From assembly GCA_964640435.1 (NCBI GenBank), contig CAZXFJ010000001.1:64542-128541 (forward strand): 64,000 nt of DNA, in the 5' to 3' direction. Below, in pieces: positions 20,728 to 50,440 of the stretch; position 1 is the first letter of the stretch; every line of letters starts with the position of its first letter. The notes beneath the pieces are model-generated. The model was not told the origin of the DNA and did not search any database. It saw only the letters and a list, made by a program, of their open reading frames with translations. The translations under genes and the position numbers were made by a program. The stretch is from an uncultured Gammaproteobacteria bacterium. GTDB taxonomy: Bacteria > Patescibacteriota > Microgenomatia > Levybacterales > GWA1-39-11.

Positions 20728-20756
20728 TTGACAAATAGATGGATATAAGATATAAA
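20728..20756 (+). promoter_or_regulatory. Sigma70-like promoter for rpoBC: TTGACA, 17-nt spacer, TATAAA
   Basis: TTGACA at 20728-20733 and TATAAA at 20751-20756, with an exact 17-nt spacer. Confidence 0.55.
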
Positions 20757-20775
20757 TAATCCCAACCTAAATCGT

Positions 20776-20807
20776 GGGGGGAGTTAAGAACTTCCTTCCC
20801 TTTTTTT
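20776..20807 (+). terminator. Leader hairpin (GGGGGAG...CTTCCTTCCC) followed by T7 in the rpoB 5' leader; candidate attenuator
   Basis: G/C-rich imperfect stem followed by TTTTTTT, located between the promoter and the rpoB ATG (20844). Confidence 0.35.
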
Positions 20808-20843
20808 GTTAAAATTTCGGCACTCTTCTAGAAATTATTTCAG

Positions 20844-23800
20844 ATGGCAAAAAACATAGGCAGTAATAAACAATATTGGGGTAAAGAGTCAAAATCTTTA
20901 CCGGAATTTGATCTGTTATCCATACAGAAGGCTTCTTATAAGTGGTTTATTGAAGAAGGCATTCGTGAGGTAATCGATGAAATTTCTCCGATTGAGGATT
21001 TCACGGGTAAAAACTGGGAACTTGTTCTTGGTGACTACAAACTTGGTGAACCAAAAATCACAGAAGAAATGGCTCTTGCGAAGGGTCTTACATATTTTAC
21101 TCCTCTAACAGTTGAAGCAACTCTCGTAAACAAAAAATCAGGTAAAAATGTTAAGCAAAATGTTTTCCTAGGTGAAGTGCCTAAGATGACTGACCGTGGA
21201 ACATTTATTGTTAACGGTATTGAACGTGTTATCGTTGGGCAAATAGTTCGATCTCCTGGAGTTTTCTTCACAGCAGCAGAAGATCCAATAACAGGTAGAA
21301 CCCTTTACACAGCCGAAATGAGACCAGTTCATGGTTCATGGCTTGAATTCTCAACAACAAGAACAGACATGGTTGTTGTTAGAATTGACCGCAGAAAGAA
21401 GTTTTTAGCTTCAGTTTTCTTAAAAGCTCTTGGAATTGATACAAATGAAGAAATTTATGAAAAATTCAAGGGAATTGATGGAGCAGAAAACTACATTAAA
21501 AACACAATTGAAAAAGACGAAACTCGTGGAGCAACTGACGCATTAATCGAAATCTTCAAGAAAATGAACCCAGGAGAGCCAGTCGTTATTGACACAATCC
21601 GTCAAAACTTCCGTGATTCATTCTTTGACAGACGTCGTTATGACCTTTCACGTGTAGGTCGTTACAAAGTTAACAAAAAGCTTGCTAATATCTCAAATTT
21701 TGAGGCTCAAGATGCGTTAACACTCACTATTAATGATGTTATTGGAATAATTTCATACCTAGTTCAGCTTGCTAACGGAAAGGGTAAGATTGATGATATT
21801 GATCATCTTGCAAACAGACGTATCCGCTCAGTTGGAGAACTTGTTCAAACAACAGCATTTAGAGTTGGAGCATTAAGACTTGAAAGAATAATTAAAGAGA
21901 AAATGTCTCTTGCATCAACTGAGGAGCAATTCTCACCAAGCCACTTTATTAATGCTCACCCAATAATTGCTGCTATTAATGAATTCTTTAGAACAAGCCA
22001 GCTTTCAGCTATTCTTGATCAAACAAACCCACTTTCAGAAATTGACAATATTCGCCGCTTGACTGTTATGGGAACAGGTGGAATTTCACGTGAGCGTGCT
22101 TCATTTTCAATCCGTGATATTAATGCTTCACAATACTCAAGAATTTGTCCTGTTAGAAGCCCTGAAGGTCCAAACATTGGACTTGTTACATATCTTGCGC
22201 TTTACGCAAGAGTTAACGAATATGGATTTCTAGAAGCTCCATATAAAAAGGTAGCAGCTGAAGGTAAAAAGCTTCGCGTAACAGACGAAATTGTATATCT
22301 TGATGCAGAAAATGAGATGGAAGCATACATTACTCACGCTGATATTAAAGTTGACGAAAAGGGTTACATTGTGGATGATCTAGTTCCAGCTCGTTACAAC
22401 GGAGAATACCTTGAAGTTGAAAAAGAGAAAATCCAATACATTGATGTTATTCCACGCCAGGTTGTTGGAACAAGTGCTGCTTTAATTCCATTTATTGACC
22501 ACGACGAAGCAAACCGTGCACTTATGGGAACTCACATGCAATGTCAGGCTGTTCCTTTAATTAAAGCAGAAGCTCCAGTTATTGGAACAGGTATGGAAGA
22601 AATGGTTTCAAAAGCTTTAGGTCGTGTTATTACAGCTCCATTTGATGGAACTGTTGAGTTTGTTGATGCAAACAAGGTTACTATTAAAGATGGAAGAAAC
22701 GAAGAAACATTTAAGATTAATAAATTTAAGAGAACTTCAAACAACACATTATTTAACCAAAGACCAATTGTAACAGTTGGACAAAAAGTTAAAAAAGGCG
22801 ACATTTTAATTGATGGTCCAGCCTCACAAGAAGGAGAACTTGCTCTTGGAAAGAACTTAGTTATTGCTTATGCATCATTTGATGGACTTGGATATGAAGA
22901 CGCTATCGTTATCTCAGACAGACTTGTTCAAAGTGACGCATTAACTTCAGTTCATGTTGAGAAATATGAAGCAACTGTTGTTGATACAAAACTTGGAGCT
23001 GAAGAAACAACTCGTGATATTCCAAACGTTGCTGAAGAAGATCTAGCAAATCTTGACGAAGATGGAATCGTAGTTGTTGGATCAGAAGCAAAACCAGGTG
23101 ACATTCTAGTTGGAAAAATTGCTCCAAAAGGTGAAACAGAATTAACAGCCGAAGAAAGACTTTTGAGAGCTATCTTTGGAGAAAAAGCACGTGAAGTTCG
23201 TGACACTTCACTTCGTATGCCACACGGTGAGCATGGAATTGTTACAAATGTTCAAATTCTTGACCGTGAGCGTGGAGATGAGCTCGAGCCAGGAGCAATA
23301 AGAAAAATTCAAATTGAAGTTGCACAAATTCGTCACGTTGTTGTTGGAGATAAACTAGCTGGACGTCATGGAAATAAAGGTGTTATCTCAAAGATAGTTC
23401 CAGATTCAGACATGCCATATCTTGAGGATGGTACACCAGTTGATATTATTATTTCTCCAATCTCAGTGCTTGGGCGTATGAATCTTGGACAGCTTCTTGA
23501 GGCTCATTTAGGACTTGCTGCAAGAAACTTAAATAAAAGAATTGCTCTTCCGGTTTTTGAAAAAATGAATGAAGATCAGTATGTTGATCTTCTAAAAGAA
23601 GCAGGACTTCCTGTAAATGGAAAACAAAAGCTTATTGATGCTCGAACTGGAGAAGCATACGAAAATGATGTTGTTGTTGGAATTGGATACATCATGAAGC
23701 TTATACACATGGTTGAAGATAAAGCACACGCTCGTTCAACTGGACCATACTCACTTGTTACACAACAACCTCTTGGAGGAAAAGCACAAATGGGAGGACA

Positions 23801-32824: not shown

Positions 32825-32883
32825 GATTATAGCAAAACAACATAGTATTTACACTCAGATCACTTTCTGATAAAATAGACTCA

Positions 32884-32910
32884 CGTTCGATCTTCGAGCG
32901 AATTTTTTTT
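32884..32910 (+). terminator. Hairpin (CGTTCGA-TCT-TCGAGCG) followed by T8, ending 3 nt before the fusA ATG; leader attenuator/terminator-like element
   Basis: 7-bp stem including one G·U pair, 3-nt loop, AA, then TTTTTTTT. A candidate TTTACA-17-TAAAAT promoter lies at 32848-32876. No Shine-Dalgarno. Confidence 0.4.
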
Positions 32911-32913
32911 AAT

Positions 32914-47250: not shown

Positions 47251-47279
47251 TTGACGAGGCACGATAATTTTTGTATTAT
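47251..47279 (+). promoter_or_regulatory. tuf promoter TTGACG, 17-nt spacer, (TG)TATTAT. The spacer contains GCACGA.
   Basis: Hexamers at 47251-47256 and 47274-47279. GCACGA at 47259-47264. A weak hairpin (ACACC-CAAGA-GGTGT) plus U-rich tract follows at 47287-47310 before the ATG. Confidence 0.55.
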
Positions 47280-47324
47280 ATATCTCACACCCAAGAGGTG
47301 TTTTATTTTTGACAAAAAACAAAT

Positions 47325-48506
47325 ATGGCTGGAAAATTTGACAGAACAAAACCACACGTTAATATAGGAACCATCGGTCACGTCGACCATGGTAAAACTA
47401 CGTTAACAGCTGCTATCACAACAGTTCTTGCTAAAAAAGGACTTGCTGAAGCAAAGAAATACGAAGATATTGATAATGCTCCTGAGGAAAAAGCTCGTGG
47501 AGTCACCATTAACATCTCCCACCAAGAGTACGAAACAGAAAACAGACACTATGCTCACATTGATGCTCCAGGACACGCTGATTATGTTAAAAACATGATC
47601 ACAGGAGCAGCTCAGATGGATGGAGCAATCCTTGTTGTATCTGCTGCAGACGGTCCAATGCCTCAAACACGTGAACACATTCTTCTTGCTCACCAAGTTG
47701 GTGTACCTAAGATCGTTGTCTTCCTTAATAAAGTAGACATGGTTTCAGACCCAGAGCTTATTGACCTTGTTGAAATGGAAGTACGTGAACTTCTTTCAAA
47801 ATACCAATATCCAGGAGATGAGACACCTATCGTTAAGGGTTCAGCTCTTAAAGCAACACAAGGTGATGCAGCAGCGGAAGAACAAATTCTTGAACTTATG
47901 AAGACTGTTGATGAATACGTTCCAACACCAGAACGTGACACAGATAAACCATTCCTTATGCCTGTTGAAGACGTTTTCTCAATTAAAGGTCGTGGAACAG
48001 TTGTAACCGGACGTGTAGAGCGTGGAATGATCAAAGTTAACGACACAGTTGAAATCGTTGGAATTAAACCAACAGTATCAACAGTTATTACAGGAATTGA
48101 AATGTTTAGAAAACAACTTGATGACGCACAAGCTGGAGATAACGCAGGACTATTACTTCGTGGAATTGAAAAAGAGAACGTAGAGCGTGGTCAAGTTATC
48201 GCAAAACCAGGTTCTATTACTCCTCACACAGAATTTGAAGCTGAAATTTACGTTCTTACCAAAGAAGAAGGTGGACGTCACACTCCATTCTTCAAAGGAT
48301 ACCGCCCACAGTTTTACATCAGAACAACTGACGTTACAGGTGAAGTTATCTTGCCAGATGGTGTAGAAATGGTTATGCCAGGAGACAATGCTAAAATGAC
48401 AGCAAAATTAATTGTACCTATTGCTCTTGAAGAAGGAATGAGATTTGCTATTCGTGAAGGTGGAAAGACAGTTGGAGCTGGAGTTATTACTAAGGTTCTT
48501 AAATAG
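47325..48506 (+). CDS. tuf: Elongation factor Tu
   Basis: [18 protein letters not shown] motifs. 393 aa. Confidence 0.97.
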
Positions 48507-48550
48507 TTTAAGGGTTTCGCACATTTGAAAAGTTAAGTTCGCACGCTGCA

Positions 48551-48577
48551 GGCCTACTATTTAGTGGGCTTTTTTTG
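48551..48577 (+). terminator. Rho-independent terminator-like hairpin (GGCCTACT-ATTT-AGTGGGCT) + T7 between tuf and rpsJ
   Basis: 8-bp stem with two G·U pairs, 4-nt loop, followed by TTTTTTT. Confidence 0.45.
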
Positions 48578-48592
48578 TATTAAAATTTAAAT

Positions 48593-48904
48593 ATGGCACA
48601 AAAAGGAAGAATTAGAGTAAAACTTAAGAGTTATGATTCAAGGATCATAGATTCAACGTGTCAACAAATCCTTGATACAGCTATAAGAACCGGTGCAAAA
48701 GTCATCGGTCCTATTCCATTACCTACAAAAAGAAGCGTTTTTGTAGTAAACAAATCTCCTTTTATTGATAAAGATGCTCGTGAGCACTTCCAGCTTAAAA
48801 CTCACAAAAGACTTGTTGATATCATGAATCCAACTGATAAAACAATTGAATCTTTAATTCATTTAGATCTTCCAGCGGGAGTAGATGTAGAGATTAAGAT
48901 GTAA
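48593..48904 (+). CDS. rpsJ: 30S ribosomal protein S10
   Basis: [21 protein letters not shown]... S10 family. 103 aa. Confidence 0.95.
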
Positions 48905-49322
48905 TAAGCTCTTTTACGAGCGTGTGAGTTTCAATTTTTTTCAATTCTTCAAGCATTTGTTCGCTTATATTGTAATTTTTCATTTCATCAAAGCTGATCC
49001 AAGCAAAATCTGAGTGCTCTTCTGATAATTGTACGTCATAGCTACCTATTACTTCACATAAGAAATCTATTTGAACATAATGAGTGTCGCGACCCGTATT
49101 TTCATACATCCAAACGGCAAGTGGTGAGCCTATTTTAACATCGAGTCCTGCTTCTTCTTTTATCTCGCGAGACGCACCAGATATTGGATCTTCCATGTAT
49201 TCGAGCTTTCCTCCGGGAATTTCCCATGATCCAGGCAAAAATGAGTCATTATCAGATCTTTTCATGAGTAAAAACTTATTATTATGGACAATAAAACCGC
49301 CGGTAACTACCTTTTGATTCAT
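48894..49322 (-). CDS. NUDIX hydrolase
   Basis: Nudix box GGKLEYMEDPISGASREIKEEAGL (Gx5Ex7REUxEExGU). The 3' end overlaps the rpsJ stop by 11 nt on the opposite strand. Confidence 0.8.
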   Translation of the reverse strand: MNQKVVTGGFIVHNNKFLLMKRSDNDSFLPGSWEIPGGKLEYMEDPISGASREIKEEAGLDVKIGSPLAVWMYENTGRDTHYVQIDFLCEVIGSYDVQLSEEHSDFAWISFDEMKNYNISEQMLEELKKIETHTLVKELITS

Positions 49323-49403
49323 AGATAGTTATTATAGCAAATTATTATTAAATCCTTATTTTTCTGAAAAATAAAATTATGTAATATTTGAATATCGGTC
49401 GTG

Positions 49404-49434
49404 TTGCAATTGAGCACGAAATCATATATAATCG
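49404..49434 (+). promoter_or_regulatory. Promoter for the rplC-led operon: TTGCAA, 17-nt spacer (TTGAGCACGAAATCATA), TATAAT
   Basis: Hexamers at 49404-49409 and 49427-49432, with the shared spacer element TTGAGCACGA. Confidence 0.55.
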
Positions 49435-49507
49435 TATCTTACATGTCCAAACTATTGATGTATTTCAATAATACATAAATCGAAGTCAATCCCTGGGGCA
49501 TATATTT

Positions 49508-49531
49508 AAGCGACTTCGAGTCGCTTTTTTT
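49508..49531 (+). terminator. Leader hairpin AAGCGACT-TCG-AGTCGCTT followed by TTTTT, ending at the rplC start; attenuator-like
   Basis: Perfect 8-bp stem, 3-nt loop, U-tract, then GTG/ATG of rplC at 49532/49538. No Shine-Dalgarno. Confidence 0.55.
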
Positions 49532-49537
49532 GTGGTT

Positions 49538-50440
49538 ATGAATGTTACAAGTATAATCGGTAAAAAAATTGATCAAACACAAGGCTTTTTAGAAGACGGA
49601 AAACGTGTGCCGCTTTCCGTTATTAACGTGGCTGGAAACGTAGTATCCCAGATCAAAACAGTTGATCATGAGGGATATAATGCAATCCAACTCGGATTTG
49701 ATAATGCAAAGCGCGTTACAAAACCAATCCAAGGACACATTAAGAAAGCGGGTTTGAAAGATACATCACCCCGCTTTTTTCGTGAAAATAGGCTCGTTGA
49801 TGGCCCAGCTGACGTAGAAGTTGGATCACAAATTGTTGTTGCTGAAGTTTTTGAACCAGGAGACATTGTTGATGTTACAGGAACAAGCAAGGGTAAAGGA
49901 TACGCAGGAGTTGTTAAGAAATTTAGATTTGCTGGAGGACCAAAAACTCACGGACAATCAGACCGACATCGTGCGCGTGGATCAAGTGGATCAGGTACAA
50001 CTCCAGGTCGTGTTTACAAGGGTAAAAAAATGTCTGGACGTATGGGTAATGAGCAGGTAACTGTTAAAAACTTAGAAGTTTTGGGAATTGATGGAGACAC
50101 GCTTTTAGTTCGTGGACTTATTCCAGGAATTAAGGGAGCAGTTGTTTTTGTTAAAAAAGTTGGAAAAAACAAAAAATTCGTTCCACTATGGAGCGAGAAA
50201 AAAGAGGAAGTAGTTGAAGAAACTCCAGTTGAGGAAACAGTAGCCCCAGTTGAAGAGGTAAAGACAGCAGAAGAAACAGTTGAAACTCCAGAAGAAACTG
50301 TAGCAACAGCAGAAGAGACTGTTAGTACACCTGAAGAAACCGTTGAAACAGCTGAGGAAACTGTAAAAACTGAAGAAGCACCATCTGAAGAAGCTGTTGA
50401 GGTTAAAGAAGAAGTAAAGGAAGGAGAACAAAATGCCTAA
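49538..50440 (+). CDS. rplC: 50S ribosomal protein L3 with a ~90-aa acidic C-terminal extension (start may be GTG at 49532)
   Basis: L3 core (IIGKKIDQTQ...GTSKGKGYAGVVKK). C-terminal EETVxTxE repeats. Confidence 0.9.
   Translation: MNVTSIIGKKIDQTQGFLEDGKRVPLSVINVAGNVVSQIKTVDHEGYNAIQLGFDNAKRVTKPIQGHIKKAGLKDTSPRFFRENRLVDGPADVEVGSQIVVAEVFEPGDIVDVTGTSKGKGYAGVVKKFRFAGGPKTHGQSDRHRARGSSGSGTTPGRVYKGKKMSGRMGNEQVTVKNLEVLGIDGDTLLVRGLIPGIKGAVVFVKKVGKNKKFVPLWSEKKEEVVEETPVEETVAPVEEVKTAEETVETPEETVATAEETVSTPEETVETAEETVKTEEAPSEEAVEVKEEVKEGEQNA
50226..50380 (+). repeat. 21-nt period in-frame tandem repeat (about 5 copies) encoding (A/P)EETVxT heptads in the rplC 3' extension
   Basis: gaagaaactgt.../gaagagactgt.../gaagaaaccgt.../gaggaaactgt... 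units. Protein: ETVETPEETVATAEETVSTPEETVETAEETVKTEE. Confidence 0.7.

Follow-up and report, generated by a model that had tools for sequence, protein, structure and literature searches.

A candidate ribosome-dependent transcription attenuator preceding rplC in Levybacteria

How is transcription of the rplC-led ribosomal protein (r-protein) operon controlled when rplC is separated from rpsJ by a gene that runs in the opposite direction? This arrangement is found in the window, i.e., the whole stretch of 64,000 nucleotides that was analyzed, whose host is a member of the Levybacteria (Microgenomates, CPR). An earlier note on this DNA had pointed to a promoter and an attenuator-like hairpin belonging to rplC itself. 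Here, we analyzed the 215-nt gap between the NUDIX gene and rplC, which holds the promoter, the leader, and the hairpin, and compared it with related loci.

The junction between rpsJ and rplC

The features of the locus are listed in Table 1. The earlier note had placed rplC downstream of an antisense NUDIX gene, and this holds, the NUDIX assignment being confirmed by Pfam. The genes downstream of rplC are rplD, rplW, rplB, and rpsS, followed by further genes; L4 was likewise confirmed by Pfam. At their 3' ends, rpsJ and the NUDIX gene on the opposite strand share 11 nt (48894-48904), and scanning from rpsJ to position 49508 revealed no terminator-like site on the plus strand. Hence, read-through from tuf-rpsJ would cross the NUDIX gene in antisense and meet the terminator in the rplC leader. 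A tRNA scan of the window found none.

Two start codons in one frame, GTG 49532 and ATG 49538, are candidates for rplC. The ATG is likely the start and is favored because of the alignment with the L3 N-termini of relatives; it lies 6 nt past the end of the U-tract. With the assumed anti-Shine-Dalgarno (anti-SD) sequence, the 20 nt upstream of rplC form a duplex of -2.7 kcal/mol at best, which ranks 32 of 60 genes, compared with -7 to -10 kcal/mol for SD-led genes. By this comparison of duplex energies over 60 window genes, rplC has no usable SD, as had been noted before. Where an SD (GGAGG) was recognized by eye in the window, the gene was operon-internal. At its C terminus, L3 is extended by an acidic low-complexity stretch of ~80 aa with EETV-like repeats (window positions 50200-50440), and the start of rplD lies 8 nt upstream of the rplC stop; relatives likewise have ~300 nt between the L3 core and L4.

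Related loci were collected by an L3 protein scan with one genome per species. This gave 80 loci; where the records are named, most belong to Levybacteria and other Microgenomates (CPR). The closest relative by L3 protein is 75% identical, and an exact-sequence search with the window's L3, taken from either start codon, had no match. The term window clade is used below for 12 distinct leaders, i.e., those of the window, of genome loci L001-L005, and of six metagenome contigs. The contigs were obtained by scanning metagenomes with the 17-nt pattern CATGTCCARACTATTGA, which gave mostly chance matches, and by filtering for a second motif, CAATCCC, which left the six new leaders.

Among the loci, the distance between rpsJ and rplC varies from ~130 nt to 2.4 kb. 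The genes carried at this position in L001-L028 are mutually unrelated and include NUDIX, CDF cation efflux, FkbM methyltransferase, a Gp49/HTH toxin-antitoxin-like pair, an MGMT-like DNA-binding domain, PCMT, peptide deformylase, Asp/Glu racemase, and a TPR protein. The rpsJ-rplC junction is an insertion hotspot. Three relatives (L004, L085, and L108) have no NUDIX gene, and there the same promoter and leader start a few bases past the rpsJ stop codon, which indicates that the leader is ancestral and that the NUDIX gene was inserted upstream later. The earlier idea that the leader had been rebuilt at a new operon boundary does not agree with this.

Promoter, terminator, and leader ORF

Table 1. 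Features of the tuf-rplC region, in window positions; P1 and P2 denote helices of the predicted 5' domain.
Feature	Position	Strand	Basis or remark
tuf	47325-48506		EF-Tu by Pfam
rpsJ (S10)	48593-48904		Pfam
NUDIX gene	48894-49322	minus	Pfam
-35 hexamer TTGCAA	49404-49409	plus	TTGCA(A/T) invariant in 12/12 window-clade leaders
-10 hexamer TATAAT, within TATATAAT	49427-49432	plus	invariant in 12/12
Predicted transcription start	49441	plus	purine 2 nt before leader ATG; conserved TTRC-ATG context and -10 spacing
Leader ORF, 11 codons and stop, MSKLLMYFNNT*	49443-49478	plus	frame, length, and position kept in 12/12 relatives
P1 5' strand AUGUCC, includes leader start codon	49443-49448	plus	pairs with 49496-49501; RNAfold, RNAalifold consensus
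P2 5' strand AUUGA	49454-49458	plus	pairs with 49486-49490; RNAalifold consensus
Antiterminator 5' strand UCGAAGUC	49480-49487	plus	starts 2 nt after leader stop; pairs with 49512-49519
Invariant block UCAAUCCCUGGG and GCAU	49486-49501	plus	3' strands of P2 and P1
Intrinsic terminator hairpin, perfect 8 bp, loop UCG	49508-49526	plus	~-9.5 kcal/mol
U-tract (T7)	49525-49531	plus	T-run of 4-9 after hairpin in relatives
rplC (L3)	49538-50440	plus	Pfam PF00297, N-terminal alignment with relatives, SD energy

The promoter proposed for rplC in the earlier note (TTGCAA-17-TATAAT) was recovered at 49404-49432 and is conserved in 12/12 close relatives, among which the sequence of the 17-nt spacer varies while the hexamers are fixed. 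It scores 10/12 sigma-70-type consensus matches. Our scans counted 59 promoter-like sites, against 60 expected by chance, and 11 terminator-like sites in 20 kb, against 11.5 expected. As single-sequence patterns in this AT-rich DNA, the promoter and the hairpin are thus at chance level, and their significance comes from conservation.

The -10 hexamer is followed by the leader ATG at a distance of exactly 10 nt in 12/12 close relatives, and TTRC precedes this ATG in 12/12 window-clade sequences. Transcription is predicted to start at 49441 and would yield a near-leaderless mRNA. The corresponding spacing in sister clades is 11-16 nt; together, these spacings point to 5' UTRs of 2-7 nt, so that the messages would not be strictly leaderless. 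Among 60 genes of the window, 13 have a -10-like hexamer that ends 5-9 nt before the start codon, with a peak at 6-7, which suggests that leaderless initiation is common in this genome and, consequently, that initiation should be possible at an AUG only 0-3 nt from the 5' end. The hexamers of these genes often read TGnTATAAT or TGnTAnAAT; examples of the genes are those listed as 5049, 11678, 35087-, 35962, 45458-, and 48894-. A second promoter before the hairpin (TATATT, 49501-49506, as at tuf and fusA) was considered and rejected, being too near the hairpin and not conserved. Apart from the promoter at 49404-49432, the window shows none for rplC.

The perfect 8-bp hairpin with its T-run, which the earlier note had seen before rplC, occupies 49508-49531. 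Its arms, AAGCGACT (49508-49515) and AGTCGCTT (49519-49526), enclose the loop TCG (49516-49518), and the terminator scan reported eight pairs, four of them GC, a loop of 3, and T7, which is the form of a rho-independent terminator. Structure prediction, suggested in the note as a check, returned the hairpin at the energy given in Table 1, but the single-sequence folding z-score of the leader (-1.17) is unremarkable. The attenuator-like character of the hairpin is not a matter of chance: in 66 of the 73 Microgenomates rplC loci with a called hairpin, a hairpin with a strength of at least -7.5 kcal/mol and a T-run are found within 60 nt of the ATG. The conservation check gave a similar picture, since stem sequences differ among relatives while pairing and position are kept. 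As a G+C-containing hairpin with a T-run precedes rplC whatever lies upstream, we regard it as a selected feature of rplC and not of the upstream gene. In the window, where the NUDIX gene is antisense, there is no upstream gene for the terminator to end, and rplC expression has no visible route other than read-through. Across loci, U-tract and ATG are 3 to 143 nt apart, and several sister-clade loci, read by eye, have a normal SD after the terminator.

Mimicry of 23S rRNA by the 5' arm of the terminator (UUAAGCGACU, 49506-49515, identical to E. coli 23S nt 3-12, E = 0.31) was considered and judged to be chance, as relatives vary there. Comparison with the E. coli 16S, 23S, and 5S rRNAs gave only 6-10-nt matches with E values of at least 0.3, which is noise level. 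AAGCGACU is also the commonest terminator arm in other Levybacteria.

Two parts of the leader had not been described in the earlier note, namely, an 11-codon ORF and an antiterminator pairing. That note had drawn attention to an inverted repeat, TACAT...ATGTA; the repeat is present (49440-49444 and 49458-49462), but the pair is not conserved, and TACAT holds the start codon of the leader ORF. The leader peptides of relatives follow the pattern MS(K/R)LLxxx(L/M)(V/I)T*, with Leu at 3/11 codons in most window-clade peptides. The stop codon stands at one position throughout; the window has TAA there, L086 has TAG, and ten relatives have TGA. Over its first 16 nt, the ORF shows no change at all, synonymous sites included; the C-terminal half of the peptide has synonymous changes (TCA/TCT, TTA/CTA) and conservative substitutions. 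The leader ORF has no SD. It looks like a translated ORF, and its translation is assumed in what follows.

Analogous ORFs, defined as a -10-like hexamer followed 7-16 nt later by an ATG that opens 4-15 codons ending before the terminator, were found in 50 of the 73 loci, compared with 6.3 +/- 2.5 in shuffled sequences (maximum 14). Across loci, these ORFs are most often 11 codons long, with 26-30 nt typically separating the stop from the terminator. The peptides differ by clade: other Levybacteria have MxxxxEVIxAT*, loci that are mostly titled Woesebacteria have MxVVMIxxSHD*, in which all three stop codons are again used, and others have MEVxxxx*. When these peptides were inspected for enrichment of regulatory codons, neither a repeated residue common to the clades nor a codon bias toward a specific signal was found.

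In sister-clade leader ORFs (L012, L016-L022, and L025; e.g., L018 at ~2905-2925), the stretch GGAGGUGAU(C), located ~14 nt from both the AUG and the stop, is perfectly complementary to the canonical 16S 3' end. Its nucleotides are conserved even in L008, where the reading frame over it is shifted, and an in-frame AUU, AUC, AUG, or UUG usually comes after it. This element is possibly a ribosome anchor at the stop or an internal SD. Some Woese-type terminators carry CCUCC, which could pair with GGAGGUGAU.

Leaders with a comparable layout were noticed elsewhere in the window. Before tuf (47251-47324) and fusA, encoding EF-G (32870-32913), a short G+C hairpin begins right at the predicted +1 of a promoter (ACACC-CAAGA-GGTGT and CGTTCGA-TCT-TCGAGCG in the tuf and fusA regions) and is followed by a U-rich leader of 10-25 nt without SD. 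These hairpins look like 5' stabilizer or landing-pad modules, or very early attenuators. Between tuf and rpsJ (48550-48592) there is a terminator-like hairpin with U7, and as the ATG of rpsJ is preceded by TAAAAT at a distance of 6 nt, this gene may be a separate leaderless unit. Upstream of a 1130-aa ORF at 20844, which from its size and position we take to be possibly rpoB, the region ~20728-20843 has TTGACA-17-TATAAA, a G-rich hairpin, and a U7 run ~40 nt upstream of the ATG; a leader ORF is not obvious there.

Antiterminator pairing and possible modes of control

The strand UCGAAGUC is a perfect 8-bp complement of GACUUCGA (49512-49519), which spans four bases of the terminator 5' arm, the loop, and the first base of the 3' arm. 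MAFFT misaligns the terminator arms of the window clade, and co-variation was accordingly measured by duplex energies with permutation and not by column counts. Over the 12 leaders, the mean duplex energy is -8.3 kcal/mol for cognate and -5.6 kcal/mol for noncognate partners, and none of 20000 permutations was as good, using a statistic that ignores kinship. The antiterminator of L001 and L002 amounts to merely 4 bp. When the nascent RNA was folded up to the terminator loop, the antiterminator was part of the minimum free-energy (MFE) structure in 12/12 leaders, whereas masking of a ribosome footprint at the leader stop left the terminator alone to form.

Other Levybacteria have a version of their own. 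There, the last three codons of the leader ORF, including the stop (GCUACAUAG), pair with the loop and the top of the 3' arm of the terminator (CUAUGUAGU). In the alignment, 80.6% of cells pair, compared with 28-46% when the partner is slid, and three pairs are changed on both sides (e.g., GACUACAUC/GAUGUAGUC in L007, and CAUAA/UUAUG vs CAUAG/CUAUG); 3 of 500 shuffles reached the covariation score. The mean duplex energy is -10.9 kcal/mol, against -4.2 kcal/mol for shuffled sequence. The terminator helix shows 98% pairing in the same alignment and shares columns with the antiterminator, which makes the two mutually exclusive. For the naked full leader, the antiterminator is the MFE structure in most members. 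The leader sequences are entirely different between sister clades, the common features of the clades sampled being the ORF and the terminator. Hence, in two separate constructions, the antiterminator strand lies within what a ribosome terminating on the leader ORF would cover.

Taken together, these sequence data lead us to propose that the leader is a ribosome-dependent (leader-peptide, trp-type) transcription attenuator gating the rplC-led r-protein operon, to which we assign a probability of roughly 0.55. Several features of such attenuators are found: a 5' ORF conserved in position and frame, a terminator between this ORF and rplC, and an excluding antiterminator within reach of the ribosome. 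Regulatory codons are absent, and these define the amino-acid subclass rather than the mechanism. According to the proposal, the sigma-70-type promoter would start the transcript 0-3 nt before the 11-codon ORF, and nascent 49480-49487 would pair with the 5' arm and loop of the terminator (49512-49519) before the terminator 3' arm is made. A ribosome that has completed the mini-ORF, at or near the stop (49476-49478), would cover 49480-49487, allowing the hairpin and U7 to form and transcription to end ~6 nt before rplC. With no ribosome, or with one that is late, slow, or early in the ORF, the antiterminator would persist and RNA polymerase would read through into rplC, rplD, and later genes. 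The net effect would be more r-protein mRNA at low translation capacity or speed and less at high. We infer the transcription start, the translation of the ORF, termination at the U-tract, and the direction of the response from the sequences compared.

A further and more tentative step, to which we give clearly less than an even chance, is that the effector is the ribosome itself, the leader timing AUG loading plus 11 codons against the arrival of RNA polymerase at the terminator, and that, in Levybacteria as well as several sister lineages of Microgenomates, this takes the place of L4-type autoregulation by free r-protein. If true, transcription of the rplC-led r-protein cluster would be fed back directly by translational capacity, which would explain the uncoupling of rpsJ and rplC and the gathering of foreign genes at the junction. 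The candidate regulator is widely conserved and precedes the largest r-protein gene cluster in Microgenomates; its presence accounts for the promoter that rplC has to itself and for the insertion hotspot at the junction, and the logic of leader peptide and antiterminator is open to in vitro testing without culturing the organism.

Folding of the full naked RNA of the window clade (nested-structure MFE) gives the terminator together with a 5' domain of two helices, P1 and P2, so that an absent ribosome may lead in this clade to read-through or, as in the trp leader, to termination. Among the 12 leaders, neither helix shows two-sided covariation. P1 has only one-sided U-A/U-G changes, and the 5' strand of P2 is invariant in all 12, so that covariation neither supports nor contradicts its pairing. 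The blocks AUGUCCAAACUAUUGA and UCAAUCCCUGGG are absolutely invariant in 12/12, including unpaired bases and synonymous sites. Invariance at synonymous sites points to a constraint, at the RNA level or from protein binding, that the attenuator model does not need, and is typical of a protein-binding site. It would fit autogenous attenuation of the E. coli S10 kind, in which free L4, L3, or another r-protein binds the P1/P2 internal loop and stabilizes pausing or termination, the ORF being incidental or secondary. The regulated genes are indeed those of r-proteins, and the terminator sits where known r-protein attenuators have theirs. L3, L4, and their rRNA sites are highly conserved, however, so that a mimic should be common to the clades, whereas the invariant blocks are limited to the window clade and sister-clade leaders are unrelated to them. 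Neither the window nor 20 related loci hold an Rfam r-protein leader, and similarity to E. coli rRNA does not rise above noise. That a short translated-looking ORF and a terminator are what the clades have in common argues for ribosome-mediated rather than protein-mediated attenuation, and we consider control by a bound r-protein unlikely.

The terminator wins in naked window-clade RNA at equilibrium, as would also be expected of a constitutive element, i.e., a leaky terminator or insulator (e.g., against tuf-rpsJ read-through), a 5' stabilizer, or a U-rich ribosome landing site, with a functionless ORF and alternative pairing. The gap in terminator-like sites between rpsJ and 49508 agrees with an insulating role, and a hairpin followed by a U-rich stretch and an SD-less ATG also precedes tuf and fusA, with the hairpin at the predicted +1, and rpsJ. 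Because of this recurring layout, the hairpin and U-tract may have a second role in mRNA stability or SD-independent initiation. As a full account, the constitutive element is rather improbable. The distance between U-tract and ATG is variable, the SDs past the terminator in several sister-clade loci imply that initiation there does not require the hairpin, the rplC hairpin is not directly preceded by a conserved promoter, and an ORF in 50/73 loci where 6 were expected, along with antiterminator co-variation in two clades, is hard to explain without function.

We judge equally improbable a stall sensor closer to the trp leader, responding to Leu-tRNA supply, a ribosome-targeting antibiotic, or nascent-peptide arrest, in which read-through would occur only upon stalling inside the ORF, and both absent and complete translation would lead to termination. 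P1 and P2 (49443-49458 with 49486-49501) may act as an anti-antiterminator in the folding models, like regions 1:2 of the trp leader, and the three Leu codons of most window-clade peptides would fit a Leu-tRNA input. When the footprint of a ribosome at codon 6 was masked, the antiterminator was favored over the terminator in the window and in L086, but the terminator still wins in 10/12 window-clade leaders. No amino acid is common to the clade-specific peptides, and the naked RNA of the sister clade already adopts the antiterminator fold, which fits read-through in the absence of translation, as the ribosome-dependent attenuator proposed here would have it.

Finally, although promoter, ORF, and terminator form a complete unit of ~90 nt with synonymous and conservative changes in the C-terminal half of the peptide, and attenuator-derived peptides and sRNAs have trans roles in Sinorhizobium (PMC7968998, PMC7298713), an independent tiny gene that makes an 11-aa peptide or trans sRNA and merely has rplC downstream is very improbable, given that the unit stands directly before rplC in every locus examined, whatever lies upstream, that the window offers rplC no other visible promoter, and that the peptide sequence is not conserved between clades.

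Relation to known attenuators and r-protein leaders

The E. coli S10 leader stands before rpsJ, has no leader ORF, and mediates L4- and NusA-dependent attenuation. As proposed for the rplC leader, a hairpin resembling an intrinsic terminator controls transcription into the S10/L3/L4 cluster, and the goal is r-protein homeostasis. The resemblance to L4/S10-type attenuation put forward in the earlier note ends there: the rplC leader lies after rpsJ in the window and in all loci, carries an ORF, is unrelated in sequence between sister clades, and has no sequence or structure match to the S10 leader. Searches against Rfam 15 gave no match in the window at the gathering threshold or, beyond noise, at E values up to 10, and none at the gathering threshold in 20 loci. 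The S10 leader is restricted to Gammaproteobacteria, and the balance of r-protein synthesis is known in detail mainly for E. coli, RNA leaders being narrowly distributed (PMC3616713).

Short upstream ORFs (uORFs) that report general translation status, not one amino acid, as proposed here for rplC, are found in ribosome-stalling antibiotic-response attenuators (ermC-type; E. coli topAI uORF, PMC12121999). Those leaders induce resistance or stress genes upon stalling, whereas the rplC leader precedes r-protein genes and has no recognizable arrest motif. The leaderless short-ORF attenuators of mycobacteria (polycysteine sORFs; bioRxiv 10.1101/834739; background in PMC4633059), resemble the proposed rplC element in that a polycistronic mRNA opens with a (near-)leaderless uORF, the translation of which governs expression of the genes downstream. 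The polycysteine sORFs are described as cysteine-responsive (bioRxiv 10.1101/834739); the rplC leader differs in having no such codon bias, a canonical intrinsic terminator, and r-protein genes as targets.

The closest architecture is that of the classical leader-peptide attenuators (E. coli trp, his, leu, thr, pheA, and pheST), which likewise combine a promoter-proximal short ORF with alternative antiterminator and terminator hairpins and a U-tract just before the first structural gene, and in which a ribosome at the leader stop would also cover the antiterminator strand. The rplC leader differs from them in lacking a run of regulatory codons, in its near-leaderless ORF without SD, in its length of ~90 nt, in its target, which is the main r-protein operon and not an amino-acid pathway, and in its CPR host. 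Full-text searches of the literature turned up neither an rplC leader peptide nor any r-protein leader in Patescibacteria/CPR. Judged from its sequence, the rplC leader thus appears to have the known architecture of a leader-peptide attenuator, the new element being a near-leaderless ORF without regulatory codons that would control the main r-protein operon.
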